From a virus (lineage: Duplodnaviria; Caudoviricetes): DNA of 55,227 bases. Numbering within the stretch: the stretch's first letter is position 1; the number at the start of each line of letters is the position of its first letter. The stretch is from IMG/VR virus record IMGVR_UViG_3300032282_000541, positions 1 to 55,227 of that record; one strand, 5' to 3'. Below are positions 2,587 to 55,227 of this stretch, piece by piece. Made by a program: the position numbers and the translations under genes. The notes beneath the pieces are model-generated. The model saw only the letters and a list, made by a program, of their open reading frames with translations, did not search any database and had not been told where the DNA came from.

Positions 2587-3582
2587 TTAGTTGCGACGAC
2601 CGTTGTTACGGTCATAAGAAATGAACTCAGCGATCATGCGCTTCTTGCGCTCAGGGTTGTCCCAAGCACCAGCTTCTTTCATTGCCTTGACTCGGTCAGG
2701 CGATAAAACAAACTGGTTGCGATTGGTACCACCATAAGCGGCTGACGCTTCTCGTCCTGCACTTCCCACAACATTCCTTGGTCTTCTGACATCACGGGAC
2801 TCGTTGTCATTGGAATCATTGTAGCGGTGTGGTAACTCTCTTTGCAAACGGCTGTCAAGCTCGTCCCAATAGTCGGGGTCGGTAGCGTTCCAACCCTGAG
2901 CCGCCATCAATTCGTCAGTCTTCTTGGCAATCCTGCTATCAGGGTCTGAAGCCGCCGGGTTGTACCACTTGTTGCGGCGCATCCACTGCTGGGCAAGCCT
3001 TTGAACCTCTGGATCGTGGTCATTGGCATCGTTTTGCTGAGGACGACGCAATTCTTGGTCAGCCTGATGGCGCATGGCCGTCAATTGGCGAGCCTCTTCT
3101 TGAGCAGTCTGCCAAAGAGTTTGAGCCTCCACCATGGCTTGGCCGTCGCCGTTCTGTGTGGCCTCTGCCAGCTTCATTTTGGCGTACTCAAGGCGCACCT
3201 GAGCGTCCTCAATACCCTTGTCGATGCGTGTAATGTGCTCGGACTTGGTATTTCGCTCCAATTGGCCTAAACGTCGCTTGAATTCCTCGTTTTCACGTTG
3301 GAGTTGGGTCAAGCGAGCGTCTTTTTCCTGATTTGTCTTGCGAATCAGGTCTTTTTTAGCCCGGCGACGGTTGCGTTTGGCCGCACGAAGCTCATCGTCG
3401 TCGTCTGGATGGTCTTCATCTTCAGCACTGACGTTGCCACCGTCTGCTTTTGCGTTTGAGCGGTCGTCATCACCACCTTCTTCGCCAGCATTCATTAGGC
3501 TACTGGGTAAATCGACCGTTGCAGAGCCGTCTTGCGACTCAATCACTGCAATGTCTTCATCTTTTCCTTTGGGATCAGCCAT
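2587..3582 (-). CDS. Putative capsid scaffolding protein
   Basis: Acidic N-terminus, long coiled coil, basic C-terminus; position between portal and capsid genes. Confidence 0.7.
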   Translation of the reverse strand: MADPKGKDEDIAVIESQDGSATVDLPSSLMNAGEEGGDDDRSNAKADGGNVSAEDEDHPDDDDELRAAKRNRRRAKKDLIRKTNQEKDARLTQLQRENEEFKRRLGQLERNTKSEHITRIDKGIEDAQVRLEYAKMKLAEATQNGDGQAMVEAQTLWQTAQEEARQLTAMRHQADQELRRPQQNDANDHDPEVQRLAQQWMRRNKWYNPAASDPDSRIAKKTDELMAAQGWNATDPDYWDELDSRLQRELPHRYNDSNDNESRDVRRPRNVVGSAGREASAAYGGTNRNQFVLSPDRVKAMKEAGAWDNPERKKRMIAEFISYDRNNGRRN

Positions 3583-3594
3583 TTTTGACTCCTG

Positions 3595-4050
3595 TTAGAC
3601 GTAGGCTTTGAAAGAAAGGGGATTGCTTGTGACTTTGGCGATCACTTCGTGGTCGTTGATGGTCATAAACAGTACGGGGTCTTCGCTTGCATCAGTCGCC
3701 GGGTCTTTCATTTCCCAGCGGTCACCGCCCCAACGAGGTACGCGAACAAAGTCACCAACTTCTGCCCATGAGCCCTCAGGCCATGACTGCATGGTGTCTC
3801 GGTTTTTGTACGCCAAAGGCCCAAGTGCCACGACCTTTCCGATCATGTTGTTCCACTTTTCGTTTTCTTTGGTTTCATCGACGATGATGATCATCCCCGC
3901 CTTCTTCTTGATCCGTCGGAGTTGCACGATCATGCGCCCACCCAACGGTTCCATACCCGGATTCACACCCGGGAATGCCCACGCCAACTCTTGCGGGTCG
4001 GGCGTGTCCTGCGTCGCTTCAAAAGTCACGACTTGTTTTCCTTCACTCAT
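3595..4050 (-). CDS. groES: GroES-like co-chaperonin
   Basis: PLGGRMIVQ, GMIII, GKVVALGPLAY, VGDFV, INDHEVIA match the Cpn10 pattern. Confidence 0.85.
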   Translation of the reverse strand: MSEGKQVVTFEATQDTPDPQELAWAFPGVNPGMEPLGGRMIVQLRRIKKKAGMIIIVDETKENEKWNNMIGKVVALGPLAYKNRDTMQSWPEGSWAEVGDFVRVPRWGGDRWEMKDPATDASEDPVLFMTINDHEVIAKVTSNPLSFKAYV

Positions 4051-4305: not shown

Positions 4306-4462
4306 TGGACTTCTTGGCACCAGACAAACCGCCAGTGCGCTTGGCAGGCTGGCTATTGGTTCCCTTGCCTTGCATGCTTTGGCCGTTCAGCTTCTCGCCC
4401 ATAGCCATGCGTTTGTGCTGGGGCACATTGACGCTCTTTTGTTCTTGATCAGATGTTGCCAT
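4298..4462 (-). CDS. 54-aa hypothetical protein (not in ORF track)
   Basis: AAGGAG RBS, then MATSDQEQKSVNVPQHKRMAMGE...KSNA*; fills the gap after the portal gene. Confidence 0.6.
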   Translation of the reverse strand: MATSDQEQKSVNVPQHKRMAMGEKLNGQSMQGKGTNSQPAKRTGGLSGAKKSNA

Positions 4463-6902
4463 TAGGTTCTCCTTGAGGTGGCGTTGTGGGCTCGGCGGGT
4501 GCCGCGCTTATTTGAGCCTGAGCCACGTTTTGAATGGTCTCGTGCGTCAATTTGGAATTCTCAATGGCAATCTTGGTTTGATTGTCTTGAGTGTGCTTCG
4601 CCATGTCTTCCTGCATTTTCTGTGTGTCCAGTTGCAGGCGAGCTTGGTCATATTGCGTCTTGCGTTGGGTCTCAGCCATGCTGGTGTCCTTGACCACTTG
4701 TGCGTCAGGCGGCAAAGGCTGGGGTGAGTTCTTGCGCTGTTGAGCCATTTGAATAAGCTGTTGCAGAGCCTGTTGGAATTGGCCGAACACTTGCTGGGTA
4801 TCCAGCATGACGTGGGCACCAACGGTCGTGTACACCTTGTCAATGGTGGCTGTGAGATTTGGATCGTCGTAGTCGTCTATAGGCTTGCCAACGGCATTCT
4901 CAACATATCCATTTGAGCGGTTGAGATACCACAAGGTCATGTGTTGCTTCAGGTGCTCAATCAGGTTGTTCAGGTAGTTCGGGTCAGCAAATGGCGACTG
5001 TCCCAAGAATGGGTTCAAAGCAAATTGCAGGTGATCCTGAATGTGGGCAATGTGATCCTGTTGCAGGTACGCATAGGCTGGCTGGCCGATGAGCAGTGCG
5101 GCATTCTCGTCTGCCGAGGTGCGTTGTTCTGGTGATGGCACGTCTTTCATCAATTCGTTGATGTTGGGAACCTTCATCTGCTTAAGCATGCGAGCCAAGA
5201 CTTTGCTCATGTTGAACTGATCAGGGTGCTTCTCAGCCAAAGCCAATACGGCTTGGTTTTGAGCCATGCGCTGGGTCTCACTGAAGATGTGAGGATCAGA
5301 CACTGGCACCACGTCGGTGTTCTTGTCAAAGTCTTCGCGGGTGACTTCCAAGTCGGCAACCACGTCGCCCATTTGCATCTCATCAAAGTGCCAGCGGTTC
5401 AAGCGGCACAGAATCTTCAGCACACGGGCTTGGCTGTCGTGCATGCGTGCATGGATTGATGAGAACACCGCCGCACCTTGCTCAATCAGGGCTTGTGTGG
5501 TGCCTACAGGGGCGTTGGCGTTCACGTCAGCAATCTTCTCTTCGCTGGTTGTGACTACGCCTTTGGCGGCTTTATCCAGCCATCCCAGCAACTCCAACAG
5601 CACAGGGCTTGGTGGATTGAATGGCATGGGCATGGCAATCTGGCGAATGTCCTGCACGCCGGGTGCGCCTTCGATCTCCACGATCTGGGTGACATCAACC
5701 TGCTGGCTTTGGCCGCTGATCTTTGCGCCCTTCAACTTCAGCATGGTTGCTGTGTTGTTGATGTGTGCGGTATCCAACAAAGCACGCAAAGCGCCCGTCA
5801 GAGCGGCGCTGAGGCCACCAATCAAGTGGGGCAGGCCAATGGCATAGGCACCACGCCATGGGATGAACTTGAACTCCACAACCCAGTCCAGCTTGGTCAT
5901 GGTTTCGTCCTGCTCTTCCCAGTTGCGGTACAGGCCAACTACCTGAAGATCGATCTCGTCAACCATCAGGATGTAGGGGGCTGTTTCTCCCTTGGTCTTC
6001 TTATCGTCTTCCAACTCCAAGTAGCAGTAGATGTGATAGACCTTGCGAAGACCGTCTTGGTTGTCTTCAAACTTCTTGCCTTCAACTTTGTTGTTGGCCT
6101 GCTCGACTTTGTTTTGCTCAAGGGTTTGGCTGGCTTTGACGTAGCTGACATCGCGGTACATCCCGGTGCGGATGCGGCGCTCAAACTCATATGTGGTGAT
6201 CTCGTGGACTTCAGCCGCACGCTGGGCGGTGTAGAAGTTGGTGGCCGCAAATGGCAGGATCACACGGTCGATAGGCAGGAACTCCACGCATGGGCGCTTC
6301 TTTTGCTCGTCAAACCACAGCTTGAAATATTGTGAGCCGCCCAGTGGCAACTGAGTCAGCAATTGCTCTTGCTCGTCTTTGAACTCTTCGATCTGCTCAG
6401 TGATCTGCCAGTTCAGGTAGTCGCGCTTGCGCTCTGACTTGGCAGATTTCATGTCGTCCATCTTGCCCAGCACCTTGGTCTTGACAGGGCCATCAGGTGG
6501 AAACATCTCTTTGATAGCGCGGGATGCAAAGTCAACACAGCCCTCGGCCATTGCCGGGTGGACTACTTTGCTGGCACCCATGAAGGTGGCACCACCAGGG
6601 GCATCGTTGCCCATACCAGTGCGTCGAATACCCTCTTCGTATTGCTTGTCGCGCAGTGACCGGGCTTCCTTGTCGGTCTCCAGCAAATCAAGGTAGCGCA
6701 TAGCCAGCGAAGACAGCGTCCCGGGGTCAATGCTGTCGGCCAAGTTGTCGTAGAACTCAGGGTTGAACTCAGGCCCGTCGTTCTCCATGGTGATGATGGC
6801 TGAACCGTCTTCCTGCTCTTCCGTGTCCATATCGGGCAAGTCAACGACAGCACTGCCGTCTTCTTGCTCCTCGATTGGGTAGTCGTCTTGTTCTGCCATC
6901 AT
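4449..6902 (-). CDS. Portal protein (podovirus type)
   Basis: 817 aa, largely helical; HPAMAEGCVDF, LPLGGSQYFK, PVGTTQALIEQG motifs; Q-rich coiled C-terminus; upstream of the head genes. Confidence 0.85.
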   Translation of the reverse strand: MMAEQDDYPIEEQEDGSAVVDLPDMDTEEQEDGSAIITMENDGPEFNPEFYDNLADSIDPGTLSSLAMRYLDLLETDKEARSLRDKQYEEGIRRTGMGNDAPGGATFMGASKVVHPAMAEGCVDFASRAIKEMFPPDGPVKTKVLGKMDDMKSAKSERKRDYLNWQITEQIEEFKDEQEQLLTQLPLGGSQYFKLWFDEQKKRPCVEFLPIDRVILPFAATNFYTAQRAAEVHEITTYEFERRIRTGMYRDVSYVKASQTLEQNKVEQANNKVEGKKFEDNQDGLRKVYHIYCYLELEDDKKTKGETAPYILMVDEIDLQVVGLYRNWEEQDETMTKLDWVVEFKFIPWRGAYAIGLPHLIGGLSAALTGALRALLDTAHINNTATMLKLKGAKISGQSQQVDVTQIVEIEGAPGVQDIRQIAMPMPFNPPSPVLLELLGWLDKAAKGVVTTSEEKIADVNANAPVGTTQALIEQGAAVFSSIHARMHDSQARVLKILCRLNRWHFDEMQMGDVVADLEVTREDFDKNTDVVPVSDPHIFSETQRMAQNQAVLALAEKHPDQFNMSKVLARMLKQMKVPNINELMKDVPSPEQRTSADENAALLIGQPAYAYLQQDHIAHIQDHLQFALNPFLGQSPFADPNYLNNLIEHLKQHMTLWYLNRSNGYVENAVGKPIDDYDDPNLTATIDKVYTTVGAHVMLDTQQVFGQFQQALQQLIQMAQQRKNSPQPLPPDAQVVKDTSMAETQRKTQYDQARLQLDTQKMQEDMAKHTQDNQTKIAIENSKLTHETIQNVAQAQISAAPAEPTTPPQGEPNGNI

Positions 6903-9900
6903 TTAGCCTTTTTCTTCAAGATCATTTCAAGTTGCATTGTCCCAGTATTTTTATGGACGGCAACTGGCATTTTGAAGCGAGTGTGTTTGGTCTCATCTTC
7001 ACCGTGACGCATAGCCAAGTGGCGTTGGGCCGCGACGTTCTGCTCAGGGAATGCGTGGAAGTCGTCGTCGCTATAACCGGGGTGACGGCCACCAACTGCG
7101 CCACCTTCAGCATAGAACTTGATGGACTGAGGTGCGCGGTACTCTTTGCCTGCCGCCTTCAGTTGATCTTCTGGCTTGTCGATCTCGTACTCGCCTTTGT
7201 TTGCGATTGCGTGCTCGATGTGCTTGTCGCTCACGTTGTGGGTGAACGATGTCTGGTGCCCAATGTTGCTGGTGGACTCGGTTGGCGTAGTCATCAGGAT
7301 GTGACCAGCCTTCTTACCGTTCTTGGTCATGAACCGCTTCTCAGGTAAGAACTCCTCGTCCTTGAACCGTGAGTCGGTGGGGATCATGTGATCCACGGTT
7401 TCCATTTGTCCAGTCTTCTTGTTTTTCTTGCGCTCAGGTACGTTCACCAGACGTGGGTGCAGGATGTGTTGCTTCTGGTAGTCAAAGCGTTTGCCGCCAA
7501 CAGTGGTGTGGCCGTAGTGAGCCTGTTCTGGTTTGGTGGGCTTGCCGTCGCCGCCAAAGTGACCTTCTGGGCCTTCTTTCTTTTCTTCAGGTGTCAACTC
7601 ATGGTCTTCGCGGCCAGTCGTCCAATACTTGGCGTGAGTGATGTGCTCTTCCATTTTCTTGGACATAGGTGAGCCGCGCTTCACGTCAGTCACCATGTAA
7701 GAGCCCTTGGGCGGTGTCTTGTTGCCCTGCTCATTTGTGAAGTCACCCTTGTTGTCAGCGGCCATGATGGTGTTGCGTACACGAGCCTTGTCACGGCCAA
7801 TGTTTTCAGCAATGGACTCACCCTTCTTGACCTTGGGGCCGACGTTGGAGTGGGTGACGTAGTAGCCGTTCTCTGGATCATGCAACTCGTTGGTCTTGCC
7901 GTAAGAGTTGGCAATGATTGGCGGCTTCTTGTCGGCTTTGCGCTGGTCATTCAAGTGACGGATAACGTGGCGTGAGGTCACGTCGGTCTCGTCCACCACG
8001 TTGGGACGGAACAACAAACGCTTGTTGTTCTTGTCTGCCAGTCGTGCGGCATTACGTAATGAGCCAGTGTGAGCCAGTATCCAGTCATTGGTCATGGCTG
8101 GGTCGTGCTTGGCCTGCTCATGAGCGGCTCGGCGTACTGCGGCACCAGCGTACTGGGACTCAGCATTCGGCGCAAAGCAGGTGCCCTTCTTGGTGTCCAC
8201 AATGCCATTTGCATCTTTACCACCGCCACAGCCTTCGGTCTGACCGGGGCAGGTGTTGATGACGTTGTACTTGGTGTCCTTGCCGTGGCCTGTGGTGTAC
8301 AGAGCATGACCTGCCACGCCTTTAGAGGCAAATCCAATGTGAGTGCGGCCTTGTGCGTCTTCCTCATGGCGCACGGTGTCCAGCTTCTCTGACTCATCCA
8401 ACGTGTTGGCTGTCTTGCCAATGTGCTTGGCTTCACGCAGGCGATTCAGTGCGGCCTCTTCTGCCTCGTGTTGTTCTTCAGGCGACTTTGCAAAGTGGTC
8501 GGCCAATGTTTTCTTGTGCATTGAGGCCATCTTGCTGAGGGTCAGCGGGTCGCGGTGGTCGTCGCCATAGACCTTTGCCCGGGCTTCGTTCATCTCATGC
8601 ATGCCGACAGCGCCAGCTTTTTTATTGCCTTCCAGTGTGTGGCGGGGCACGACGATACCCTTCACGCCGCCAGAGCCTTCAGCATTGATGGTCACACGTT
8701 TGCCAGTATCAGTAGGTGCCTTTGCGGCCATCTCAGACTTCATCTCCTCCACGGACTTAGCAGAACCGCCCTTAGCCATGGCCTGTGGGGGTTTCATGGC
8801 ACCCAGCGCCTGACCTTGCGGTGTCATCTGAAGCATGTTGCCCATGGGCGGTGTTGCTCCTTGTGGAGCCATGTCAGGCATACCGCCGGGAGGAGGGGGC
8901 TGGCCGGGTAATCCACCCTGTTGTTCAGGCTGGGGAGGTGGTGTCATAGGCTGAGGCATCAACTGCTGGCCGGGTTGCTGTTGGCTGGTGTCTACACCAC
9001 CGACAGGCATACCGCTGGTGGTTGCCACACCACCGGGAGTAGGCATGCCGCCGTACTCTTGATCTGGTGGGAAGAATGTCTTGGGGAACATGCCGGGGGC
9101 TTCGTTCACGCCGATGTTCTTCAGGTTGATGGGGTTAGCCTTCTTGGCAATCTCCATCTTCATTTGGGTCAGTGATGGTTGCACGTTGCCTCCTTCGGCT
9201 TTATGAATGATGCCACCCTGTGCATACAGGGGAAGGCCATTGGTTAATACGTCTTTACGCATGTCTTCTGTGATGGGGAAGTGGTGCAACCGCTTATCAG
9301 CCGTTTCAGCAATTTTTTGATTTTGCTCTGGCGTTAGTTGCGCCATGGGGATGTGAGCGATGCCTAATTTTTCCACGGCATTGCCATAGTCTTCTGGCGA
9401 ACCCTGCAAGCGATGACCACCCAACTGAGTCTTCACACCATACTTCTTGCCAATGCTGTTCAGGATGTTGGGAACCTTAGTGTCGTAGAAAGCTTTCATG
9501 CCCTTGCCGCCAACATGAATGTCCTCACCTTCAAGCTGGTGAGTACCCAATACTTGCGGGGCTTTCAGCAGGCGGTCTGCAACCTCCTTGCCAATGTGGC
9601 TGGGCAAGTCTTCCTTCTTAATGCCAGCTTCGTTCATTACCTCACGGCGATCATGACCGTATGCCTTTAGGCGCTCTTCCTCTGGGTGATAGCCAAGGTA
9701 GCCAATGTGGTTGCCGATGTTGTATCGCTTGGCTTGCTCCACGCCGGGAGTCACCACGACACCGTGGTAGCCCTTCTCTGCGGCATGGTGGATCAGACGC
9801 TTGAGCGCCATCTCTTCCCAGTTCTTTTTGAATGGGGCATCGGGTATGCCAGTGTCAACAGTGAAGGGTTCTGACTCTGTGACTGTTCCGTTGTGGTTCT

Positions 9901-10789
9901 TTGCGTAATCTTCCGCTTCTCTTTTGTCTCTAAGGGTCATCAAAAGTTGGCCGTTAGCATTTCTTATTTCATATTCATGGCGCTGTACCTTACCGTACCC
10001 CTTATCACGCCCTTGCTGATGCCAGTCAGACTGCAACTCTTCAAGGTGCAACAGCTTCTCACCGCTGGGGCCAGTGCGGTCTTTCACTCGCATGCTGGCA
10101 AGGATGTTTGGCTCATGATTAAAGTGAGCGCCTACGCCGGGAAATAATTGCTGTCCCAATACAACGGAAGCTTGCCCACTGCTCCCAGCATGCTTGGATG
10201 CCTCATCAGGGTCATCAAATAGAATTTTCTCTTCGCCCGGGCGTTGCGCCCAATACTTAGCAGGCATCTTGATCAGCATCTCGCGGTAGTTTTCGCCGCC
10301 GGGAAGCGTCCATTTCTCATGGTATCCATGATCAGGTTGTTCAGTCAAATGCTCTCGCGCAATACGCAATGCATTTGGCATATGGCTGGATCGCAACCTT
10401 CTCATTTCGTCCGCAAGAAGGGATCGGTATTCGCTTGACGTGTCAGATGCCTCACTAGCGTACTCTCTAGAGCGTGTTGAGATTAACCTGTTGGCATACT
10501 TGCGAAGCGCCTCTCTGCTTGGCGGCTCAGGCTCTTCACCCAAAACTTTTTCAGCAATAGCTGGCACTGGACGGATGGCAAGGTTCGCCATGAACTGGTC
10601 ATGAGTCATGCGTGGCATGCCCAACACTTCACCCAGTCCACGCTCTTGTATCTCTGTCTGCTTGATGCCGGGGATGCCCATCAGTTCCTTCATGAACTCG
10701 GCACCAGTCCCAACCTTGCGCCTCAGCAGGCCAGCGGCTCTGTCAATAGAGGAGTGAAAGGGCTTGCCCTCTCCGACCAGCTTCTTCAT
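6899..10789 (-). CDS. Large multidomain (polyvalent-type) protein
   Basis: N-terminal domain with PGGENYRE...EELQSDWHQ...DAPFK, a Pro/Gln/Met linker, and a C-terminal domain with TCPGQTEGC...CFA (Gp88-like); domains are bounded by AxGG motifs. Confidence 0.65.
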   Translation of the reverse strand: MKKLVGEGKPFHSSIDRAAGLLRRKVGTGAEFMKELMGIPGIKQTEIQERGLGEVLGMPRMTHDQFMANLAIRPVPAIAEKVLGEEPEPPSREALRKYANRLISTRSREYASEASDTSSEYRSLLADEMRRLRSSHMPNALRIAREHLTEQPDHGYHEKWTLPGGENYREMLIKMPAKYWAQRPGEEKILFDDPDEASKHAGSSGQASVVLGQQLFPGVGAHFNHEPNILASMRVKDRTGPSGEKLLHLEELQSDWHQQGRDKGYGKVQRHEYEIRNANGQLLMTLRDKREAEDYAKNHNGTVTESEPFTVDTGIPDAPFKKNWEEMALKRLIHHAAEKGYHGVVVTPGVEQAKRYNIGNHIGYLGYHPEEERLKAYGHDRREVMNEAGIKKEDLPSHIGKEVADRLLKAPQVLGTHQLEGEDIHVGGKGMKAFYDTKVPNILNSIGKKYGVKTQLGGHRLQGSPEDYGNAVEKLGIAHIPMAQLTPEQNQKIAETADKRLHHFPITEDMRKDVLTNGLPLYAQGGIIHKAEGGNVQPSLTQMKMEIAKKANPINLKNIGVNEAPGMFPKTFFPPDQEYGGMPTPGGVATTSGMPVGGVDTSQQQPGQQLMPQPMTPPPQPEQQGGLPGQPPPPGGMPDMAPQGATPPMGNMLQMTPQGQALGAMKPPQAMAKGGSAKSVEEMKSEMAAKAPTDTGKRVTINAEGSGGVKGIVVPRHTLEGNKKAGAVGMHEMNEARAKVYGDDHRDPLTLSKMASMHKKTLADHFAKSPEEQHEAEEAALNRLREAKHIGKTANTLDESEKLDTVRHEEDAQGRTHIGFASKGVAGHALYTTGHGKDTKYNVINTCPGQTEGCGGGKDANGIVDTKKGTCFAPNAESQYAGAAVRRAAHEQAKHDPAMTNDWILAHTGSLRNAARLADKNNKRLLFRPNVVDETDVTSRHVIRHLNDQRKADKKPPIIANSYGKTNELHDPENGYYVTHSNVGPKVKKGESIAENIGRDKARVRNTIMAADNKGDFTNEQGNKTPPKGSYMVTDVKRGSPMSKKMEEHITHAKYWTTGREDHELTPEEKKEGPEGHFGGDGKPTKPEQAHYGHTTVGGKRFDYQKQHILHPRLVNVPERKKNKKTGQMETVDHMIPTDSRFKDEEFLPEKRFMTKNGKKAGHILMTTPTESTSNIGHQTSFTHNVSDKHIEHAIANKGEYEIDKPEDQLKAAGKEYRAPQSIKFYAEGGAVGGRHPGYSDDDFHAFPEQNVAAQRHLAMRHGEDETKHTRFKMPVAVHKNTGTMQLEMILKKKAK

Positions 10790-12069
10790 AGTGAGCGTTC
10801 CTCAATATCTAGGTGGTGGGCATGGGTGACTGGGCCACCTTGTCCATACAGCGAGCGTTTGCCATACACGGGATTCTTTGCCAGCACCAAGGGGCCGATC
10901 TGAACGACGTGCTCAGAGTGCGTGATGGGCTTCATGGTCTCGCGGTCATAGAAGTCACCATGGCGGCGCGGGTCGTATCCCACTTGACGGTAGTCAGGAT
11001 GGTTCAGGTACTTCTGCATGTGCTTGACGGCTTTGTCTTCGTCGATGTGCTCAAGCTCACCCTTTATCCGGGCAAACGGTGTCTTGGTCTGCTCGCCAGT
11101 GGCAACCCGGATGGCTTTGCTTGGGGAGCCCTCAAAGGTTGCATTGCGTACCGAGGATACCGAACCATATGAGGTGGGGAACTTGTCCTGCCCACCCGAC
11201 TCATCATGGATGGAGTTCACCCACACACCATGGCGCTCGTATGCCGGGATGTCCAAGCGTAGTCCAACACGGTGCCCAGCAGGCCAATTGTTGTGTGACT
11301 TCCAATTCTGCTTCTGCCTGTCAATCAGTACGTCCATTGCCTGCTCGTCAGTGGCAGGCTTGGGAATGAAGTTGTACGCCTTCACAGGCTTTTCTTTTGC
11401 CACCACCTTGGCATAGGCCGCTTGCTTCATCTTGCCATCAGCCAGTGCCCGTGCGGCGGCTTCTATGTTGGGGTTGCGACGGCTGGCCGCATCATCAAAT
11501 ACGGTAGGACGCACCTCGACCTTGCCGCCCTTGGCCTCGTGGATCACCTTGCGGGAGATGATGCCGAGACCTACGTCATGTTCCTTCTCGTACCGCTCTG
11601 CCTTGTGCAATGGGTACAGGTGCTTGGTCTCTGTGTTGATGTCGAACTGTGACCCAGCAGGCACCAAGTGGTGGCCTTCCATCTCGCGGAATCTTTTCTT
11701 GTTCACCACCTCGGGTTCGCCGATAGTCACTTCTCCAATGGCTTTGGCTGGGCCTTCACCAGTCCTGACAATAGCCACACGCTTGCCTACGTAGGGGCGT
11801 AAGGTGTCACTGTTGCGGGACTCATATGTCTTGTGGCCGTCCACAATCAGATCAGCATAGCTAAGGTCTGCCTTGCGGTCGGATGCCACGTTGATGCCCA
11901 TCACTGACCCACCCTTGGCCTTCTTATCAGTAGGCAGTGACACGCCTTTGCCTGCCATCTTTTCCATATTGGCAATACCTTGCATGCGCTGATCAAACTG
12001 CAATCCAGCAGGCTTAAACATTTCTTTTAGGCGCTGTAGTTCAGCTAATTGCGCGGGTGTCAAAGGCAT
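10786..12069 (-). CDS. ASCH-domain-containing multidomain protein
   Basis: YADLIVDGHKTYESR...AIGEVTI matches the ASCH GxKxxExR signature; a second unknown domain follows. Confidence 0.72.
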   Translation of the reverse strand: MPLTPAQLAELQRLKEMFKPAGLQFDQRMQGIANMEKMAGKGVSLPTDKKAKGGSVMGINVASDRKADLSYADLIVDGHKTYESRNSDTLRPYVGKRVAIVRTGEGPAKAIGEVTIGEPEVVNKKRFREMEGHHLVPAGSQFDINTETKHLYPLHKAERYEKEHDVGLGIISRKVIHEAKGGKVEVRPTVFDDAASRRNPNIEAAARALADGKMKQAAYAKVVAKEKPVKAYNFIPKPATDEQAMDVLIDRQKQNWKSHNNWPAGHRVGLRLDIPAYERHGVWVNSIHDESGGQDKFPTSYGSVSSVRNATFEGSPSKAIRVATGEQTKTPFARIKGELEHIDEDKAVKHMQKYLNHPDYRQVGYDPRRHGDFYDRETMKPITHSEHVVQIGPLVLAKNPVYGKRSLYGQGGPVTHAHHLDIEERSL

Positions 12070-12130: not shown

Positions 12131-12349
12131 TCAGCTTGGCAGATCGCCAGACTCTCGCAACTCTTTATCTCTGCGCCACCTGATCCACTCGCGCAACTGC
12201 TGGATAGCTTGTTGCTCGTTGATCTCTGCACGAGCACTGGTGAGGACTTCAAAGCGGTTGGCGCACACCGTGGTTCGGACTCCGTCGGTCTGAACAATCT
12301 TGGAATAGTCTTCGCCTGCATTGATTTCGATGTAGTCGTCATTTGCCAT
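12131..12349 (-). CDS. Small hypothetical protein
   Basis: AGGAGG RBS upstream of the ATG; 72 aa. Confidence 0.6.
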   Translation of the reverse strand: MANDDYIEINAGEDYSKIVQTDGVRTTVCANRFEVLTSARAEINEQQAIQQLREWIRWRRDKELRESGDLPS

Positions 12350-12420: not shown

Positions 12421-13857
12421 TCAGACACCATACGGATTCTCGCGGCCTCGCATGTTGTATATCTCTGCGTCGGTGATGTCTTCCTGCTCCAAGTCTTCCC
12501 GTGGTGGTGCGTCGATGCTGATCCACCCGGCATCGCGCAGATACCGTAGTCCTTGGCTGATGCAGTCTACGAACTCGTCATGCACAGTGCCCTCGGGGAA
12601 TGAGCATATCTGGCTGACCATGCCTTCAGCCCAGTCTCTGACAAAGCCTTTGCGCTTGCCCGACTCTGGCACCCAGACTCTTCCAGCTTTGATAATGTTC
12701 GCCACGATGGACAGTCGCTGTACTTTGTCAGCCCTGCCGGGGTTGTAGGCGATCACAGGCAGGTGCGCCTGCTGTAAGTCTTGGATCAGGGAGATGCCTG
12801 CGCTCTTGTCTTCCACGAGGATCACGTCCACCAGCTTCTTGCCCTTGCCTTCACCGTAGACCGTCTCGAACTCGTCGATCACCTTGGGGCGCAGTTGCGG
12901 GTATTGCAGGTGGTCTTGCCAGCAGTCGAGGATCATGACGCACATGCCACCGTCCATGGGCTTGAACACGCCCAGTGTGATGCACCCGGTCGGGTCGTTG
13001 ATCGTCTTATCACTGGTGGCGCAGTCATAGCTCTGGAGGATGTACTCCAGCTTGGGGAAGGGCTTGCCGTCCGGCCACAGCCTGAACCAGTCCCGTTTGA
13101 CGATGCCGCCTTCCTCGGGGTCGATGATCTCAGCGTGAATCTCCTGCCGTCCAAGGTTGGTGCCCTCGTACTGAAGAATCTGCTTCTGGAACGATGGGGC
13201 CAAGTTCTTGATGTTGCTGTACGTGCTGGCCCGGGTGATGGTCACGTCGTCACCTTCGCGCTCTATCAACTCCAGCACCACGTCCTTGGGCTTGGGCGTA
13301 GTCGAGCAGATCAGCTTGGTGCGTGTACCCAGCCGGATACCGAACTGGATCATGTCCCATGAGTCACGCAGGTATTCCCATGCGGCCAACTCATCCAGCC
13401 AGCCGCCGTGGAACTGCGGCCCCCGGAACCGCTCAGGCTCCGATGCCGGGATACCCTTGATCAGGCTCCCATTGATCAGGGTGATCTCATGCAGGCTGGA
13501 GTTGTACTTCTCAATGATGGCCGGGGGAATGACCTTCAGTAGGCCGGACTCACCCTCAAAGCAGGTGCTCTTCAAATCTCCACTGGTCGGAGCGGATACC
13601 AGCCACCGGGTGCCTGCCTGCTCCCATGCCCACCATCCCAGCGTCTCTGCCGCCGCTCTGGTCTTCCCGGCTCCACGGCCAGCCAGCAGTAACCATATGT
13701 TCCACCAGTCACCCTCAGGCTCTATCTGGTGCTTGAGCGCCTGCACCTTCAGCCATGTCATCTGCCAATTGATGGTGGCCTGCTCTACAGGGGAAAGCTT
13801 CGCAAACTCGGTCTGAAGATATACCTCGTCGTCGAGGATTGCCTCTGCAACGCTCAT
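12421..13857 (-). CDS. terL: Terminase large subunit
   Basis: Walker A AGRGAGKT, Walker B WLDE, coupling motif STTP, nuclease motifs QSYD and HDEFVD. Confidence 0.96.
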   Translation of the reverse strand: MSVAEAILDDEVYLQTEFAKLSPVEQATINWQMTWLKVQALKHQIEPEGDWWNIWLLLAGRGAGKTRAAAETLGWWAWEQAGTRWLVSAPTSGDLKSTCFEGESGLLKVIPPAIIEKYNSSLHEITLINGSLIKGIPASEPERFRGPQFHGGWLDELAAWEYLRDSWDMIQFGIRLGTRTKLICSTTPKPKDVVLELIEREGDDVTITRASTYSNIKNLAPSFQKQILQYEGTNLGRQEIHAEIIDPEEGGIVKRDWFRLWPDGKPFPKLEYILQSYDCATSDKTINDPTGCITLGVFKPMDGGMCVMILDCWQDHLQYPQLRPKVIDEFETVYGEGKGKKLVDVILVEDKSAGISLIQDLQQAHLPVIAYNPGRADKVQRLSIVANIIKAGRVWVPESGKRKGFVRDWAEGMVSQICSFPEGTVHDEFVDCISQGLRYLRDAGWISIDAPPREDLEQEDITDAEIYNMRGRENPYGV

Positions 13858-22411: not shown

Positions 22412-22640
22412 TTTCTGAAATGGTGATTGTTGAATCTACTCTGTTGATATGCATAGTTCCTGTGGTCACAAAATTCCAGTCGTGATCGTTGGGGTCTGCC
22501 TCAGTGTGTGAGTGGGCCAACAGCCAAACCCTCTTGCAAATCCATTCTTTGCCAGTCTCATCGAACACACGCCACTTGTGATCGATGGTGCCCCTGCCGG
22601 GTTGCCCGGCAGACTTGTTGTATCTGATCCTGAATTTCAT
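22407..22640 (-). CDS. Hypothetical protein
   Basis: MKFRIRYNKS... after a GGAGG RBS, coupled to the oxygenase gene. Confidence 0.55.
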   Translation of the reverse strand: MKFRIRYNKSAGQPGRGTIDHKWRVFDETGKEWICKRVWLLAHSHTEADPNDHDWNFVTTGTMHINRVDSTITISEI

Positions 22641-23272
22641 ATCACCTCCACGTCGGGCTCTTGTGGCTCTGGTGCTACTGCCACCGATAGGTTCATGTGA
22701 ACGAACCTCATGGGCTCTTGGCTCATGTTTTTGGTGAAAGAGTGGGGTAGCCATGCATTTGCAAATATCAGGGTTCCTGCATCCGGCGTGAACACGACTT
22801 GATGTGATCCCATGGTGATCTTGTTGGCATCCTTCTCAGGCAGGTTGATGATCACCTTGGCGTGCCTCGGATCGTGCAATACCAGCTTGCATGAGTTCTT
22901 GGGTGCGTCGATGAAATAGAACGCACTGATCTGCACTCCATGGCCGTGGATATGGGTTTCCATTGAAGACATGTGGCTGTGTTCTTGCGTCCACATCTCA
23001 GTGAAGAACGTCACCAAACTATCCATGTTGTAGCCCTGCGACTCAAGAATGTTCCATGCGGTCTGCGACACGTACCGGGAAAACTCTTCCAACTCTGGTT
23101 CATGTGCATAGGTTCCGGTCATAAGGGTGGCACCTTTTGAACCTTCACGATTGGCTTCTTCATACCTCGAAGACACTGTGCGAACTGCCTCCAAAAACTC
23201 AGGTTTTTTCACCACATAAATCGGGCTGGCAAAGTAGTGCGCTTCTTCAAGTTTGTCCATTCGTTTCTCCAA
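22637..23272 (-). CDS. Putative 2OG-Fe(II) oxygenase (TIGR02466-like)
   Basis: HIH...SAFYF...DPR...LIFANAWLPH...R..MN pattern. Confidence 0.78.
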   Translation of the reverse strand: MEKRMDKLEEAHYFASPIYVVKKPEFLEAVRTVSSRYEEANREGSKGATLMTGTYAHEPELEEFSRYVSQTAWNILESQGYNMDSLVTFFTEMWTQEHSHMSSMETHIHGHGVQISAFYFIDAPKNSCKLVLHDPRHAKVIINLPEKDANKITMGSHQVVFTPDAGTLIFANAWLPHSFTKNMSQEPMRFVHMNLSVAVAPEPQEPDVEVI

Positions 23273-24117: not shown

Positions 24118-24987
24118 TCAGGAATATACCATTTCTTTTTTCTTCAGTTCCATGACCTTCGCAACGACCGCAAAAAGGCTTTCCCTTTGATGCAGGTCGT
24201 TGGCATCCCATCCCACAGTATCGGCCATCGTCCAAGGCAAACCTGTACTTATTGCCGATTTTTCTCCAGTCTTAGATTCATCGTTGTCGGCAAAAACATA
24301 CACCCTGCCGGGCACCTGATCGGCCACCTGCACCATGTTGCTGGCGCTGAAGCACACAACCACCGCCGCAGGCATGCCAACGCTCTTCAGGGCGTGTTTT
24401 AAGGACATCCCTGTGGCTACCCCTTCGACCAGCCAACTCTCGCCTGCATCGCGGTTTCCCAGCGTCAGGACGGCGTTCTTTGCCCTCATGCCATGGAGCA
24501 TCTTCTTTTCATACTTGCGAGTCTCTACGTCCCATCTGATCGACTGGTAGCCCTGCAACTTGTTGGTCACCACGTTCCGCATGGGGATCAACAGTTTGTC
24601 GTCCAGCACCAGCCCACGGGCTTCCTTGAACCCTTTGATCTCAAGGTAGGGGTGGTAGTCCTGCTTGGCCGACCGCAGGGTGATGTCAGCCTGCAAGGCG
24701 GCGTACTCGTACTTCTTGTCCTGTTCGCTGGCCGCTGTGGATCGTTTAGCCGCCCATGCACGCTTTTCTTCGTCAGTCCATGGTTTGGCATGCGGGTCTT
24801 CGTACCAGATCACTCTGGCCTCTCCTGACCAGTCCATGACCCATCCACGCTCACCATCCCAGAAGTAGGCACCATTGCCGGACTTTGGCTTCTCTACGGT
24901 GCCACACCGCTTGATCTTGTCGGACGCATACAGGCGGGTGTGATCAATCTCAACACCATGGGCTCGGGCAAAGTCAACGAAACGCAT
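24118..24987 (-). CDS. Toprim-domain DNA primase
   Basis: HPYL..KG, LLIPM, VEGVATG, FADND, DANDL. Confidence 0.85.
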   Translation of the reverse strand: MRFVDFARAHGVEIDHTRLYASDKIKRCGTVEKPKSGNGAYFWDGERGWVMDWSGEARVIWYEDPHAKPWTDEEKRAWAAKRSTAASEQDKKYEYAALQADITLRSAKQDYHPYLEIKGFKEARGLVLDDKLLIPMRNVVTNKLQGYQSIRWDVETRKYEKKMLHGMRAKNAVLTLGNRDAGESWLVEGVATGMSLKHALKSVGMPAAVVVCFSASNMVQVADQVPGRVYVFADNDESKTGEKSAISTGLPWTMADTVGWDANDLHQRESLFAVVAKVMELKKKEMVYS

Positions 24988-25177
24988 ACGCCCCCCTTAC
25001 ACCACACAGGCGTTCATACTTGGCACCACGCTTAAGGCGCTTGCACACATTGGCCTTGCTTTGAGCTTTGGCCTTCTGTTGAAGTTGTGCTGAAGTCAAG
25101 GGCGCTGGCGGCTCGTTGTACTGATACACCGAAAACCCGACAGCAACGGCCAGACAAACCAAATATTCTTTAATCAT
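24974..25177 (-). CDS. Small protein with N-terminal hydrophobic segment
   Basis: MIKEYLVCLAVAVGFSVY; 4-nt overlap with the helicase gene. Confidence 0.45.
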   Translation of the reverse strand: MIKEYLVCLAVAVGFSVYQYNEPPAPLTSAQLQQKAKAQSKANVCKRLKRGAKYERLCGVRGAYAFR

Positions 25178-26703
25178 TTGCCAGCCCCTTTCTTCCACGC
25201 CATGTTCAGTTGGGTAATTTTATTGATCACGTTCTTGCCAATCTCAACTGTAGGCGCAGTGGTGAACTTCCACGTCGGGTCTTGCCCGGTAATCTTCTTG
25301 AACAGGTGGTAGGCGCGGCCTTGTTGGTTTTCAGGCTTGCTGTGAATGCGTGCGTAGTTCACGACTTGGTGCCACAGGTGCTCGGCGTTGTCGGCAATCT
25401 TTTTCTTGTTCTTACCCTCGCCAATGAAGATTTCCTTCATGTGGCCGGGCAGTGCTTCGCTGATCTGCGTGCTGACCTTCTCGTGGCCGCAGGCCATGCA
25501 CCGCTTGTGAAACGGCTTGTAGCCACAGCGTGGGCAACCCTTGGCCTCAAACTCCTCCTGCTTACGAATGGCCTTGTCCAGCTTCTCGCCGTCGTCCAAC
25601 TTCGCCAGACCATTGAAGTAGATGTCGTTGAAGTCCTCAAAGAAGCGCACGATGTTGCCGCTGAAGTCCAGCAGGTAGCAGTCCTTCTTGCCAGTCTCGT
25701 TGGATGAGCGCAGGCCACGCCCCCACATCTGGATCGCAGTAGACAGCGACTTGCGTAAAGGACGGGCATCACAGATACAACCCACGTCAGGCACGTCAAA
25801 ACCCTTTGCAAGAGCCTCTACGCTGATCAGCACCCGCAAGTGGCTGTCGGGCTTCCTATACTCCTTCAGGAGGTCTTCCCGCTCCTTGGCGGTGGTGTCC
25901 GAAGTGAACACAGCGGCCATCACGCCGCTTGTAATAAATTGCCGGGCCATTTCTTCACAGTGCTTGATGGTCGCGCCAAACACAATGGTCTTGCGGTTCT
26001 CGCCAAACCTGTGCCAGTCAGCGACTACGTCACCAATAATTGCCATGCCACGCTCTTCAGCGGCTTTGTCTGTCCATTCGCCGCCTGCGGTAGCCGCGCC
26101 AGTCATGTCAGGCTTGTGGCAAGAGAAGATTCGCATAGGCACCAGCACGCCGTTTTGCGTCAGGTCGTACATGGTGGTGGCGTTGATCAAGTTGGTGAAT
26201 ATCTTGCCCAAGCCAACTGTGAAGGGTGTGGCCGATAAACCGACTACAGCGGCACCAGTGCTTTGTGCAAACTCAGTCCACGCCTTGTAAGCAGTGTGGG
26301 CTTCATCGACCACCAGAACATCCATCTTCGGCCAGAACTCACGCTTGGCAATCGTCTGGACGGATGCAATCTGCAACAGTTCGTCGGGCTTACGTCTCCA
26401 GTGATTGGCCTGAATTATCCCGTGGCTGTGCAGGCCGTAGTTGTCGGCCACCGTGGATGTTTGGTTGATCAGCGTGGTGCGGTCGCACAGGAATACTGCA
26501 CGCTTACCACGCTGGATCGCTTCATTGCAAATTCTCAACCCGAGGTAGGTCTTACCCGCCCCGGTGGGAGCCATGATGAGTTGGTTTTTATGCCCCTCAC
26601 GGAACCCCTGTCTCAATTCGTTGTGAGCATCAACTTGAAACTGCCGGGGGGTTGGGAATTTTGATCCATCATCACGCTCACTTGGCGCTAGGGAGTTGGT
26701 CAT
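25174..26703 (-). CDS. Superfamily 2 DNA helicase with Zn finger
   Basis: APTGAGKT, DEAH, SAT, KGFDVP, QMWGRGLR, CPRC/CMAC. Confidence 0.93.
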   Translation of the reverse strand: MTNSLAPSERDDGSKFPTPRQFQVDAHNELRQGFREGHKNQLIMAPTGAGKTYLGLRICNEAIQRGKRAVFLCDRTTLINQTSTVADNYGLHSHGIIQANHWRRKPDELLQIASVQTIAKREFWPKMDVLVVDEAHTAYKAWTEFAQSTGAAVVGLSATPFTVGLGKIFTNLINATTMYDLTQNGVLVPMRIFSCHKPDMTGAATAGGEWTDKAAEERGMAIIGDVVADWHRFGENRKTIVFGATIKHCEEMARQFITSGVMAAVFTSDTTAKEREDLLKEYRKPDSHLRVLISVEALAKGFDVPDVGCICDARPLRKSLSTAIQMWGRGLRSSNETGKKDCYLLDFSGNIVRFFEDFNDIYFNGLAKLDDGEKLDKAIRKQEEFEAKGCPRCGYKPFHKRCMACGHEKVSTQISEALPGHMKEIFIGEGKNKKKIADNAEHLWHQVVNYARIHSKPENQQGRAYHLFKKITGQDPTWKFTTAPTVEIGKNVINKITQLNMAWKKGAGK

Positions 26704-34700: not shown

Positions 34701-36647
34701 TTAACCTTTCGCTCCATTGATGTAGTCAAGTGGAGATTTTGCCTTTGGGGGAATTTTACTTGTGGGTGCTGATCTTTTGTGTGCCCTGAGTTTCTCACGA
34801 AGGCCGTCCAAAATCTTTGCACCCGCCTTGTTGTCACCGCCACCCAGAGCGGTCACAAATCCTTCTGGGAACACATACTCGCCATCTGCAATCTTTGCAG
34901 GTACAGGCTTGCCGCCACCAGTCTCTTTGTGAGGTACTTGGCTACGGAAGCTCTCAAGGACATCTTTACCAGCCTTGCTGGAGCCGTCGCCCAGTGCCGC
35001 CACCACGTCAGCGTCCATCACGTAGTCGCCATCGTGAAGCATGGCCGGAATTTCGTCTGATTGACCTGTACCGCCACCGCAAGCATAGAAACCAGTCAAC
35101 CCGGTTACAAACTCTGTGTTGTGACCTTCAGGTGCGGCCTCTCTGTACTTACTCGGCAGACCACCTTTAGCCAAGCCACCCATATTGCCCATAGGTGAAA
35201 TGTGTTGACTCATGTGTGAAAGCGGCTTCAAGCCCATTGCGGCACGACGCTGGGATGCAGTCGATGTCAATAGGTTTGCGGCGCAATCAGCAAATTTAGG
35301 CATGTACTTAGGATCATTGTTCAGGCAGAAACAAGTTGTTGTTCCACCTGAAGCAAATCCACTTGGGCTTGCAAAGTTTCCAGAGATTTGACTTCCAGTT
35401 TCATCAATATCCAGAGGCTTCAAAACGTCAGCAGAGTAATTTTTGCCGTACAGGGCCGCTTCTCTTTTTTTCTTTTCTAGCTCTTCTTCTGTCAAAGTAG
35501 TTTTGGTCAAGGCGTTTGGATCAAGCTTGTTCACCAGCATTTCTGCATCTGTGTTCAACCATGGGCTCATCACACTTGACAGGGATGAGTAGTCACCAGC
35601 GCCGCTTGATCCTTTTGATCCCGTTGACTTGCCTGTGCCTTTTTTCAGGAATGCGCTGGCATTGATGTTGGGCACATCGATGTTGTAGGCGCAAGAAGGC
35701 GTTGGAATGACCGCTTCACCAGTCACGTTGGGATTGTTGATGAATGATCCGGGATCACCCAGTGCAGGCTTGGCACTTTGATCAATGAACCCTGCGCCAC
35801 TGACAGTGCCCAAGGCACCTGTAGAGTAATCAGGATTGTTGATGAATGAATTGGGGTCGCCCAAAGGAGCGGAAGCATCAATTGAAAGCCCGGAAGCACC
35901 ACCCATGTTGCTCATTCCCGGCGCTTGCCCCATGATGCTATCCATGGTCAAGGTGTTGTAAGCACCAGCAGGATTCAATCCTTGCTCACTTGTGGGAATG
36001 TTGCTCTTATCACCAGTCAATGAGTAATCGGTTGGCTTTACATCCCAACTTGATTTGTCAAGAGGTTCATAGTCATCAGTACCCTCTGGAGAGTCATATG
36101 AGATATTTAAATCATCTTCATTCATTGATGGCGTATTCAACTCTGTAGCCGTTGCATCAGTGAGTGCATTAAATCCAGTATTCAGGCCGCTCATCAAAGC
36201 GCCTTGTCTAATATCTCCACCACGTAATCCTGCGGCGGTTGCTCCTGCGGCGGCGCTTCCAAGGGTTGCTGAAAGACCAGCGTTGATACCTTGATCAGTA
36301 AGTGCCGAGGAAAAAGATGAGCCCACGCCAGAGCCAATTTGCTGAGTTACGTATGAAACGCCAGCATTCAGTAGCGCCTTGTCAAGGGATTGACCATGAG
36401 CCACGCCATCGACAACGTTAACCGCAGGCAAGAGGTATGGCGCATAGACGGCGGCGGCAACCTTGGCCGCTGTACCAATTGGGTCTTTTCCTGCCGCTGT
36501 GATTGTGTTGTCTACAACCTGAACAACTGGCTGAAGGATTTCTCTATCTACTGTTTTTAAAACATCATCAGCCGCCTCGAACACATCTCCAACGGCATCT
36601 CCAACACCTTCAAAAACATCTCCAGCAAATTCAACCACTGCTCCCAT
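34701..36647 (-). CDS. Putative ejection protein with duplicated C-terminal PAxxxDGxYV domain
   Basis: Amphipathic N-terminus starting MGA; GGGTGQSDEIPAMLHDGDYV and PAKIADGEYV repeats. Confidence 0.62.
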   Translation of the reverse strand: MGAVVEFAGDVFEGVGDAVGDVFEAADDVLKTVDREILQPVVQVVDNTITAAGKDPIGTAAKVAAAVYAPYLLPAVNVVDGVAHGQSLDKALLNAGVSYVTQQIGSGVGSSFSSALTDQGINAGLSATLGSAAAGATAAGLRGGDIRQGALMSGLNTGFNALTDATATELNTPSMNEDDLNISYDSPEGTDDYEPLDKSSWDVKPTDYSLTGDKSNIPTSEQGLNPAGAYNTLTMDSIMGQAPGMSNMGGASGLSIDASAPLGDPNSFINNPDYSTGALGTVSGAGFIDQSAKPALGDPGSFINNPNVTGEAVIPTPSCAYNIDVPNINASAFLKKGTGKSTGSKGSSGAGDYSSLSSVMSPWLNTDAEMLVNKLDPNALTKTTLTEEELEKKKREAALYGKNYSADVLKPLDIDETGSQISGNFASPSGFASGGTTTCFCLNNDPKYMPKFADCAANLLTSTASQRRAAMGLKPLSHMSQHISPMGNMGGLAKGGLPSKYREAAPEGHNTEFVTGLTGFYACGGGTGQSDEIPAMLHDGDYVMDADVVAALGDGSSKAGKDVLESFRSQVPHKETGGGKPVPAKIADGEYVFPEGFVTALGGGDNKAGAKILDGLREKLRAHKRSAPTSKIPPKAKSPLDYINGAKG

Positions 36648-55191: not shown

Positions 55192-55227
55192 AGTTGTGAT
55201 GACAGCGGCAACAATGTTGGTTGTCAG

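Follow-up and report, generated by a model that had tools for sequence, protein, structure and literature searches.

A recurrent A-x-G-G peptide marks the joints between exchangeable modules of a split polyvalent protein encoded between the terminase and portal genes of a tailed phage

Why should the terminase and portal genes of a tailed phage be kept apart by two large genes, and why do the products of these genes repeat the same short peptide, A-x-G-G? The question is raised by the IMG/VR virus record IMGVR_UViG_3300032282_000541 (Caudoviricetes), analysed over its full length of 55227 bp, denominated here the window. The record is a complete phage genome featuring direct terminal repeats, in which nearly all genes are carried by the minus strand. 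Three open reading frames (ORFs) are found on this strand between terL (12421-13857; Terminase_6N, E 3.9e-25) and the portal gene (4449-6902; phrog_1216, E 8.6e-25): one of 72 amino acids (aa; 12131-12349), one of 427 aa (p427, 10786-12069) and one of 1296 aa (p1296, 6899-10789). Overlaps of 4 nt (ATGA) connect p427 to p1296 and p1296 to the portal gene, and the two large ORFs are in this way embedded among late, virion genes. Comparison with other genomes indicates that close relatives of this phage have exchanged, duplicated, lost and re-ordered modules of the encoded protein, and that the joints are located at the A-x-G-G peptide.

The initial annotation of the window had described p427 and p1296 as polyprotein-like genes whose domains are delimited by AxGG motifs, and all the motifs that it named are found where it had placed them. 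In p427, AKGG occurs at 11908-11919 (Ala at residue 51) and 11524-11535 (residue 179), and the variant GQGG at 10834-10845 (residues 409-412). p1296 hosts AQGG (9212-9223, residue 523), AEGG (9188-9199, residue 531), AKGG (8765-8776, residue 672) and AEGG (7100-7111, residue 1227), plus an additional AVGG (7088-7099, residue 1231), which brings the motifs to eight, all encoded by the minus strand. Tandem copies are separated by spacers down to 8 aa. In the 1723 aa of the two proteins A.GG is found 7 times, against a mean of 1.42 in shuffled sequences, and a count of 7 was reached in 0/2000 shuffles. The extended form [KMYLFH][AG].GG.[VIA] is found 6 times, against 0.14 by shuffling. The remaining 44 ORFs of the window (12716 aa) feature 17 A.GG and 4 extended forms. 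A scoring matrix derived from 306 motif 13-mers of relatives, the window being left out, detected 6 sites in p427 and p1296, one in a scaffold-like protein, two in a Lys/Gly-rich protein of 381 aa and none in the other 43 ORFs, against a total of 0.25 in shuffles, part of this signal being contributed by homologous flanks.

The relatives were collected by scanning IMG/VR with the portal. A portal relative is encoded in 124 of the 127 matching stretches, and 80 loci were kept, in which the portal is 74-92% identical. Both terL and portal are present in 75 loci, MW202545.1 (locus L001) and the window included, and 63 of these are distinct. In the distinct loci the gap between the two genes varies from 2978 to 7343 nt and hosts between one and four ORFs no shorter than 40 aa, encoding large proteins of up to 1998 aa, in which up to about 10 modules may be lined up. 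A total of 373 A.GG was counted in the 92193 aa encoded by these loci. All-against-all BLASTP comparison of 89 distinct large proteins yielded 9418 internal alignment ends, 40.5% of which are no more than 5 aa away from an A.GG; among random positions the share is 4.9% (median distance 9 versus 82 aa). The ends collapse to 464 unique breakpoints, and 216 of these lie within 10 aa of an A.GG where 39 are expected; the search for domain swaps among orthologues, suggested by the initial annotation, has located them at the motifs.

When p427 and p1296 are aligned to the loci by tblastn, the alignments are interrupted at the same places. Among 88 alignments of p1296, 26 begin at residue 527 or 528 and 30 end at residues 675-691; among 26 alignments of p427, 9 begin at 51-57, 8 stop at 184-190 and 11 at 412-419. 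An example of a swap is provided by MW202545.1, whose 890-aa protein starts with the p427 leader up to KAKGG, continues with a different domain of about 85 aa, and from KAEGG onwards is 71.6% identical to residues 528-1296 of p1296. Modules were sorted by splitting the proteins at each A.GG and grouping the resulting segments at 70% mutual coverage, which gave 87 families; single-linkage clustering at 50% coverage was discarded, as it fused 279 segments into one cluster. In the 63 loci the modules are arranged in 59 different orders. Module 5 is found next to 17 different left neighbours, and module 6 next to 13 different right neighbours. Across the same phages the major capsid protein is 91-96% identical (38 loci). 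The idea of interchangeable cassettes delimited by the motifs, put forward in the initial annotation, is borne out by these data.

The same relatives lead to one correction. p427 and p1296 are the split form of one gene, which many relatives keep fused. Locus L053, for example, hosts the modules of the window, in the same order, in a single gene encoding 1646 aa. In the window, p427 ends with the peptide PVTHAHHLDIEERSL (10789-10833), which follows the last GG and precedes the stop codon and the ATGA restart. At 21 distinct loci the upstream gene of the split form ends similarly in GG-x-VTHAHHL[E/D]IEERPL, followed by the stop, ATGA, and M-x-ELVG-x-GKPF, with synonymous variation and whichever the preceding module. 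The coding stretch of this terminal peptide includes a Shine-Dalgarno-like GAGGAG or GAAGAG for the next gene. Six downstream ORFs of split loci that begin with module 1 or 5 start -1 to +1 residue past the Gly-Gly of the fused homologues, and downstream ORFs of the module-4 type start 9-10 residues past it. No polyprotein terminating at Gly-Gly was found among the relatives; the protein of locus L010 apparently ending at FAEGG is a contig-end artefact. A programmed frameshift at the split junction was ruled out, as a slippery heptamer is absent. A double-glycine bacteriocin leader was also considered and ruled out, since the leader is about 50 aa long and the GG is far from its helical part.

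The 373 instances have the consensus [K/M/Y/L/F]-A-[K/E/..]-G-G-x-V, frequently followed by x-P. Ala at -2 is fixed by the search; the residue at -3 is one of [K/M/Y/L/F] in 320/373 motifs, and Val is found at +2 in 220/373. In the codons for A, G and G, third positions have an information content of 0.2-0.44 bit and are close to background codon usage (319 motifs). Since they are nearly free, the motif is selected as a peptide rather than as DNA. Some motifs are part of larger recurrent elements. The unit F-G-F-A-x-G-G-x-V-A-P-E-E-W-x-A-E-E-H-V-N-Y is found in linkers, P-Q-G-[LM]-A-x-G-G closes P/Q-rich stretches, and an amphipathic stretch ..P-[ST]-x-x-Q-M-[RK]-x-A-L follows 58/370 junctions.

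The protein of the window is a chain of autonomous modules, each ending in [K/M/Y/L/F]-A-x-G-G-x-V. In the order of translation these are a leader, an ASCH module and an L5-gp82-like module in p427, which is closed by its conserved 15-aa C-terminal peptide, and a GNAT-like EELQSDWHQ module, a P/Q-rich tether, a 3-Cys module and a tail in p1296. The leader (11908-12069, minus strand as all that follow; family 12) is 54 aa long and ends in KAKGG; it is the one heading the 890-aa protein of MW202545.1. The ASCH module (11524-11907; family 10, 14 members) spans 128 aa, residues 55-182 of p427, and is enclosed between KAKGG and EAKGG. The ASCH match (PF04266) covers residues 71-152, between the first two motifs as had been anticipated, and scores 25.7 bits against a Pfam cut-off of 21.2; orthologous modules score 23.8-25.7 bits. 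The L5-gp82-like module (10834-11523; family 11) ends in YGQGG and gives only weak matches, to PF25735 (E 0.0022) and to phrog_586 (E 2.7e-6).

The EELQSDWHQ module, or module 4 (9212-10789; family 4), is 526 aa long and ends in LPLYAQGG. Its predicted fold may resemble GNAT acyltransferases: in a wide VIA-align search nearly all the top 50 rows are of GNAT type, tRNA-acetylating toxins included, with Z 7.3-10.2, root-mean-square deviation (rmsd) 3.0-6.4 A and 111-150 of 526 residues aligned, Z values of 7-8 being often reached by unrelated models as well. No GNAT family of Pfam matches the module at E <= 0.1. The 8-aa spacer IIHKAEGG (9188-9211) carries the second of the tandem motifs, and is followed by module 1 (8765-9187), the largest family with 54 members. 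Module 1 starts with the conserved NVQPSLTQMKMEIAKK, has a conserved head of 40 aa that precedes a P/Q/G/M-rich low-complexity tether, and ends in MAKGG.

The 3-Cys module, or module 2 (7100-8764; family 2), is 555 aa long, and its predicted folded core stops about 10 aa before YAEGG. Cys171, Cys178 and Cys195 are invariant, also in distant standalone homologues. The family includes 88 representative clusters, and some members are standalone proteins of 620-695 aa. The CxxxCxxC cluster motif of radical-SAM enzymes is absent, the actual spacing being C-x6-C-x16-C; radical-SAM and TIM-barrel rows are many in the structural comparison, and all are below noise (best Z 4.9, SuiB, rmsd 4.7 A, 168 aligned). 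Foldseek gave a best E of 0.018 for this module, and no PDB match at E <= 0.001 for the models of modules 2 and 4; profile searches of the two modules against PDB sequences returned nothing below E 0.3. Module 2 has no usable match in the ESM Atlas, and its model does not exhibit a protease-like fold. The C-terminal tail (6902-7099), predicted to be disordered, consists of AVGG, DDDFHAFPEQN..AQRHLAMR.. and TMQLEMILKKKAK.

The end of the chain is kept invariant. The last 20 aa or so of the tail are common to nearly all relatives, whichever module precedes them; the protein adjacent to the portal ends in ..KKGG-x-V..DTM-x-LEL..KKAK irrespective of its last module, and what is kept by the relatives is the tether plus the terminal ..DTM.LEL..KKAK peptide. 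The polyvalent gene is translationally coupled to the portal gene. Prediction of a complex of the 75-aa C-terminal tail with the portal (residues 100-700) and the capsid protein scored 0.00, which speaks neither for nor against binding.

In structural models the motifs lie out of the folded parts. In the AlphaFold model of module 4 (predicted local confidence, pLDDT, 75) the last confidently modelled element stops at residue 517, pLDDT being <50 for residues 524-526. In the model of modules 2 and 3 (pLDDT 81, predicted template-modelling score 0.76) residues 547-620 have pLDDT <50, and YAEGG is at 551-555. The possibility raised in the initial annotation that folds run across the motifs is not supported, as both predicted folds stop before them. 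The models thus place the motif in a disordered linker just outside the predicted folds, and a Gly-Gly site recurs at module boundaries in what would be an exposed linker.

The motif is not restricted to the polyvalent chain. The scaffold-like protein (331 aa, 2587-3582, minus strand) has KADGG at A46 and AAYGG near residue 283, followed near the C-terminus by ..SPDRVKAMKEAG. Among 55 distinct orthologues, A-A-[YF]-G-G is found about 50 aa from the end in 45 and KA[ED]GG near residue 45 in 14; 5 of the 10 that lack the C-terminal copy are truncated ORFs. The Lys/Gly/His/Met-rich protein (381 aa, 53471-54616, minus strand), which has no Pfam or PHROG match, hosts YAHGGKV, KASGGII and YATGGTV. 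It is mostly made of K-x-G-G-K-[VI] and [HKY]-A-x-G-G-x-[VI] repeats and is apparently disordered. At least three motif copies are found in 39/40 orthologues, copy number varies from 3 to 10 or more, and the fuller sequences have further K-x-G-G-K-[VI]. Phage MW202675.1 features a Lys/Gly-rich counterpart, annotated 'yenB', which is full of K-x-G-G-K-V, and its post-portal polyproteins have 5 A.GG against 1.2 expected, a count reached in 6/500 shuffles. In gp58 of roseophage CRP-207 there are 4 A.GG against 0.9 expected (reached in 2/500 shuffles), with sites that read YAEGGSV, FAEGGTL and MAAGGYA. An excess of A.GG is absent from p59/p60 of Pseudomonas phage F116 and gp15/gp16 of Octadecabacter virus BD1, two records found by their ART-PolyVal domain in a tblastn search of one module against GenBank phages. 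Homologues that have the domains without the motifs, which the initial annotation named as a refutation, do not arise within the lineage, where cassettes retain them. Distant ART-PolyVal and 3-Cys homologues lack them, those of the 3-Cys module including the standalone proteins P0154, P0159, P0163, P0185 and P0205, devoid of both the C-terminal motif and the tail. What the motif tracks is therefore the phage lineage together with its head module, and not the domains.

Other proteins of the window carry similar tracts. A Gly/Ser-rich protein of 648 aa (34701-36647, minus strand) has LAKGG and a ..DGEYVFPEGFV.. element; a similar sequence, ..SEGEYVVPADVV.., follows both AEGG motifs of CRP-207 gp58 (L083, 6233-9070), and elements of this type may be another shared mini-element. 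A protein of 170 aa (52507-53019, minus strand) features K-x-GG copies and a C-terminal DUF6321 (E 3.7e-16), a domain found in PHROGs at the C-terminus of far larger phage proteins.

The content of the chain allows assigning it, at the sequence level, to a known class. Several unrelated and mostly enzymatic domains (ASCH, L5-gp82-like, the GNAT-like one of 526 aa and the 3-Cys one of 555 aa) are lined up in one chain. ART-PolyVal, ASCH, PcfJ or PcfJ-like and LPD23 domains were identified by Pfam in the loci of relatives; orthologous loci sharing modules with the window have PF18760 (E 9.7e-21, L048) and PF18838 (E 2.5e-11, L022). The best 120 homologues of module 2, all at least 73% identical and thus close relatives only, include among their precomputed Pfam domains GDSL lipase, GNAT and GP88, and ART-PolyVal and LPD-type signature domains as well. 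Within p427 and p1296 themselves Pfam detected no ART-PolyVal or LPD signature domain, and no match to Phage_Mu_F at E <= 0.1, remote similarity being beyond the reach of this search. Because ART-PolyVal, LPD23 and PcfJ are found in the relatives, the p427/p1296 chain can be classed among the polyvalent proteins as Iyer et al. 2017 (PMC5512222) defined them.

What the peptide is for may be accounted for in more than one way. The account that we tentatively prefer, though at less than even confidence, is that the chain is packaged into the head and then cut after Gly-Gly. The invariant C-terminal end would serve as an address bringing the whole chain into the assembling head, beside the portal. 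A putative protease would cut the A-x-G-G sites after Gly-Gly, acting also on the motif-bearing scaffold-like and Lys/Gly-rich head proteins, and the freed modules would exit with the DNA and have RNA, nucleotides or proteins of the host as their targets. Cuts after every GG would divide p427 into pieces of 54, 128, 230 and 15 aa, and p1296 into pieces of 526, 8, 141, 555, 4 and 62 aa. If each module is released as a protein of its own, any order and combination would work, and both the combinatorial freedom and the interchangeable fused and split gene forms would be explained.

Several observations are consistent with cutting. The invariant residues, A, G and G, are the smallest ones, and the chains share one universal C-terminal peptide independently of their last module. 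Neither the order of the modules nor whether the gene is split or fused seems to make a difference. The start of downstream ORFs at -1 to +1 after GG, the 8-aa tandem spacers and the sites in the scaffold-like and basic proteins also point to cleavage, scaffold-like and basic internal proteins being typical protease substrates.

Other observations weigh against this account. Searches with Pfam (36 ORFs of the window) and with PHROGs (16 ORFs) detected no protease family, small ORFs falling outside the scan and many ORFs having no match at all. The alignment of the capsid protein to its family begins at residue 6, and the protein has therefore no propeptide. The head module includes a separate scaffold together with a GroES-like gene, a layout typical of protease-free assembly. 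Sites are so many in the Lys/Gly-rich protein that cutting would reduce it to short peptides, and such an array resembles a multivalent binding protein no less. Conservation reaches the residue before Ala and the Val two residues after Gly-Gly, and the amphipathic QM[RK]xAL helix predicted after 58/370 junctions fits a binding element. As to the breakpoints, 248/464 are more than 10 aa from any A.GG, some of which will be motif variants or partial homologies, and BLASTP ends are non-independent events, the sequences being related to each other.

Arrays of the motif in a disordered basic protein and trailing helices fit non-covalent docking at least as well as cutting. The motif, often with the ..QM[RK]xAL helix, would bind the capsid interior, the portal or the scaffold, the chain would remain intact, and the Lys/Gly-rich protein would work as a multivalent glue. 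The 3 to 10 or more copies in this Lys/His/Gly-rich protein and in its MW202675.1 counterpart are in keeping with such a role, as is the position of AAYGG and SPDRVKAMKEAG near the C-terminus of the scaffold-like protein, since scaffolds bind the coat protein through their C-terminal end. The trailing helices and the ..DTM.LEL..KKAK end of the chain could be contacts of the same kind; the lack of a protease family in the 36 ORFs scanned, and the fact that the motif tracks the head-module lineage, are equally favourable. Yet Ala, Gly and Gly offer little binding surface, the universal C-terminal address would be superfluous if all junctions dock, and docking leaves no need for downstream ORFs that start right after GG. 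We regard docking as a possible but rather doubtful explanation.

The peptide could also be recognised by nothing, as a favoured flexible hinge that tolerates in-frame recombination and is inherited with the modules. Gly-rich linkers are common, the motif is found in disordered linkers, and the joints are domain boundaries, where BLAST alignments stop anyway. A passive hinge does not require, however, the position-specific pattern described above at -3 and +2, nor tandem copies 8 aa apart, nor the presence of the motif in unrelated proteins of the same head module, and synonymous variation under a fixed peptide denotes selection on the peptide. The polyvalent proteins of F116 and BD1 need linkers too, and have no excess of the motif. 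This explanation is on the whole unlikely.

The nucleotides of the motif might alternatively be the signal, either as microhomology or as a recombinase site for cassette swaps. Breakpoints are located at the motif, and its fixed bases (GCN NNN GGN GGN) provide some microhomology; the nearly free third codon positions, a codon use like that of the background and the fact that only 8/12 bases are fixed make a DNA-level signal very improbable. Least credible is the hypothesis that K-A-x-G-G-x-[V/I] mimics the GroES mobile loop, which we take to read ..KSAGGIVL.., so that each module recruits host GroEL, because, although some copies read KASGGIIM and a GroES-like gene is found two genes downstream of the portal, as well as in MW202675.1, which belongs to another motif lineage, most copies lack a run of three hydrophobic residues after GG and CRP-207 has no GroES gene in the region inspected.

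The rest of the genome can be described briefly, all the genes mentioned being on the minus strand. The GroES-like co-chaperonin (3595-4050; Cpn10 E 3.7e-4, phrog_3188 E 5e-7) is present also in MW202545.1. The capsid protein (484-1398) is of the Phage_capsid_4, Mu gpT-like type, its family being very large and also very uniform. At least 7244 proteins match it at E <= 1e-5, with identities of 93% or more among the best 120, and one member of the family is named 'uncultured Caudovirales phage UFOVP52'; the phage lineage is abundant. Head-module proteins of 180 aa (2027-2569) and 198 aa (1417-2013) have no meaningful match in PDB profile searches, and the former hits only unnamed viral clusters in the ESM Atlas. 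A Cys-His pair in the portal N-terminus was evaluated as a protease and ruled out, the two residues being only 7 apart. Two matches to the SU10 adaptor family (42204-42842, E 6e-25; 50106-51176, E 0.0028) suggest a kuravirus-like neck, while portal and polyprotein resemble those of HMO-2011-type roseophages. An ORF past the capsid gene runs out of the window at its start (1-414), and the ORF at the window end (54628-55227) repeats the overlapping residues, which fits the direct terminal repeat of the record. A protein of 371 aa (37082-38197) with beta-ketoacyl synthase N- and C-terminal domains (PF00109 E 4e-6, PF02801 E 2.9e-17) is unusual in a phage structural region. A putative 2OG-Fe(II) oxygenase of 211 aa (22637-23272; PF13759, E 3.5e-11) belongs to the early/replication region, where a Toprim protein (24118-24987) and a superfamily-2 helicase (25174-26703) are encoded nearby.

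Known systems resemble the one described here in some aspects. T4 gp21, which acts with capsid-targeting sequences, and the phiKZ and SPN3US prohead proteases process targeted head proteins at a consensus common to scaffold, internal and ejected proteins; their sites end in Glu, and the protease genes are known. A short consensus is here similarly common to scaffold-like and internal-type proteins, with cutting only proposed. Unlike in those phages, the site ends in Gly-Gly, and no protease was identified in the ORFs searched by Pfam (36) and PHROGs (16). Gly-Gly-X sites preceded by a small or hydrophobic residue are used by adenovirus, African swine fever virus (ASFV) and the coronavirus papain-like protease (PLpro) in cutting virion precursors or polyproteins with a dedicated cysteine protease. 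In contrast to these eukaryotic viruses, the position two residues ahead of Gly-Gly is here occupied by Ala rather than by a hydrophobic residue, and none of the 36 ORFs searched with Pfam matched such a protease family. Encapsulin cargo-loading peptides and P22 scaffold-fusion loading send cargo inside an HK97-fold shell by a short peptide, one terminal peptide per cargo, whereas the motif is here repeated at every module boundary, and its binding is putative.

For polyvalent proteins, packaging and delivery with the DNA have been proposed, and autoproteolysis for those carrying a metallopeptidase domain (Iyer, Burroughs, Anand, de Souza, Aravind 2017, PMC5512222). As in the proteins described in the main text of that paper, many unrelated effector-type domains per polypeptide, extensive mosaicism and a location next to virion genes are found here, and the signature ART-PolyVal PF18760, LPD23 PF18838 and PcfJ occur in the relatives of this phage. 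Differently from them, no MuF, metallopeptidase or other peptidase domain was detected, and a defined peptide motif separates the modules and marks the recombination joints; the words 'linker' and 'glycine' both occur 0 times in that main text, supplements being outside this count. The phage P1 Dar proteins, reported there to be processed (PMC5512222), and phi24B gp47, a 2811-aa polyvalent protein found in virions by proteomics (phi24B preprint), are large head-packaged anti-host proteins, some of which undergo processing ahead of packaging or in its course. They are encoded by separate genes or consist of one giant protein, and tag-delimited cassette shuffling is not reported for them. The literature searched gave no account of the motif, nor of an exchange of cassettes delimited by tags in polyvalent proteins, subscription journals and supplements being outside the scope of the search. 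The polyvalent class is therefore already known, and motif-delimited exchange of cassettes within it was not found described.

The motif supplies a sequence rule for cutting giant polyvalent proteins into functional units, for annotation and for expression, and together with the invariant C-terminal address it provides a handle for finding the partner that reads the tag. The locus looks like a natural plug-and-play cargo, given the 59 orders found in 63 loci behind a capsid that remains 91-96% identical. Tag-delimited shuffling suggests an inbuilt system by which anti-host proteins are swapped and, probably, delivered. If the sites are cut, a tailed phage would here be using a polyprotein system. 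It is conceivable, if rather doubtful when all its parts are taken together, that an abundant uncultured tailed-phage lineage uses a true polyprotein strategy, in which head-targeted, swappable anti-host modules are cut after Phi-A-x-G-G by a putative protease and the same site processes scaffold and internal basic proteins, a phage counterpart of the Gly-Gly-X maturation of adenovirus and ASFV. Were this true, the motif would be a readable tag for finding injected effectors in metagenomes.

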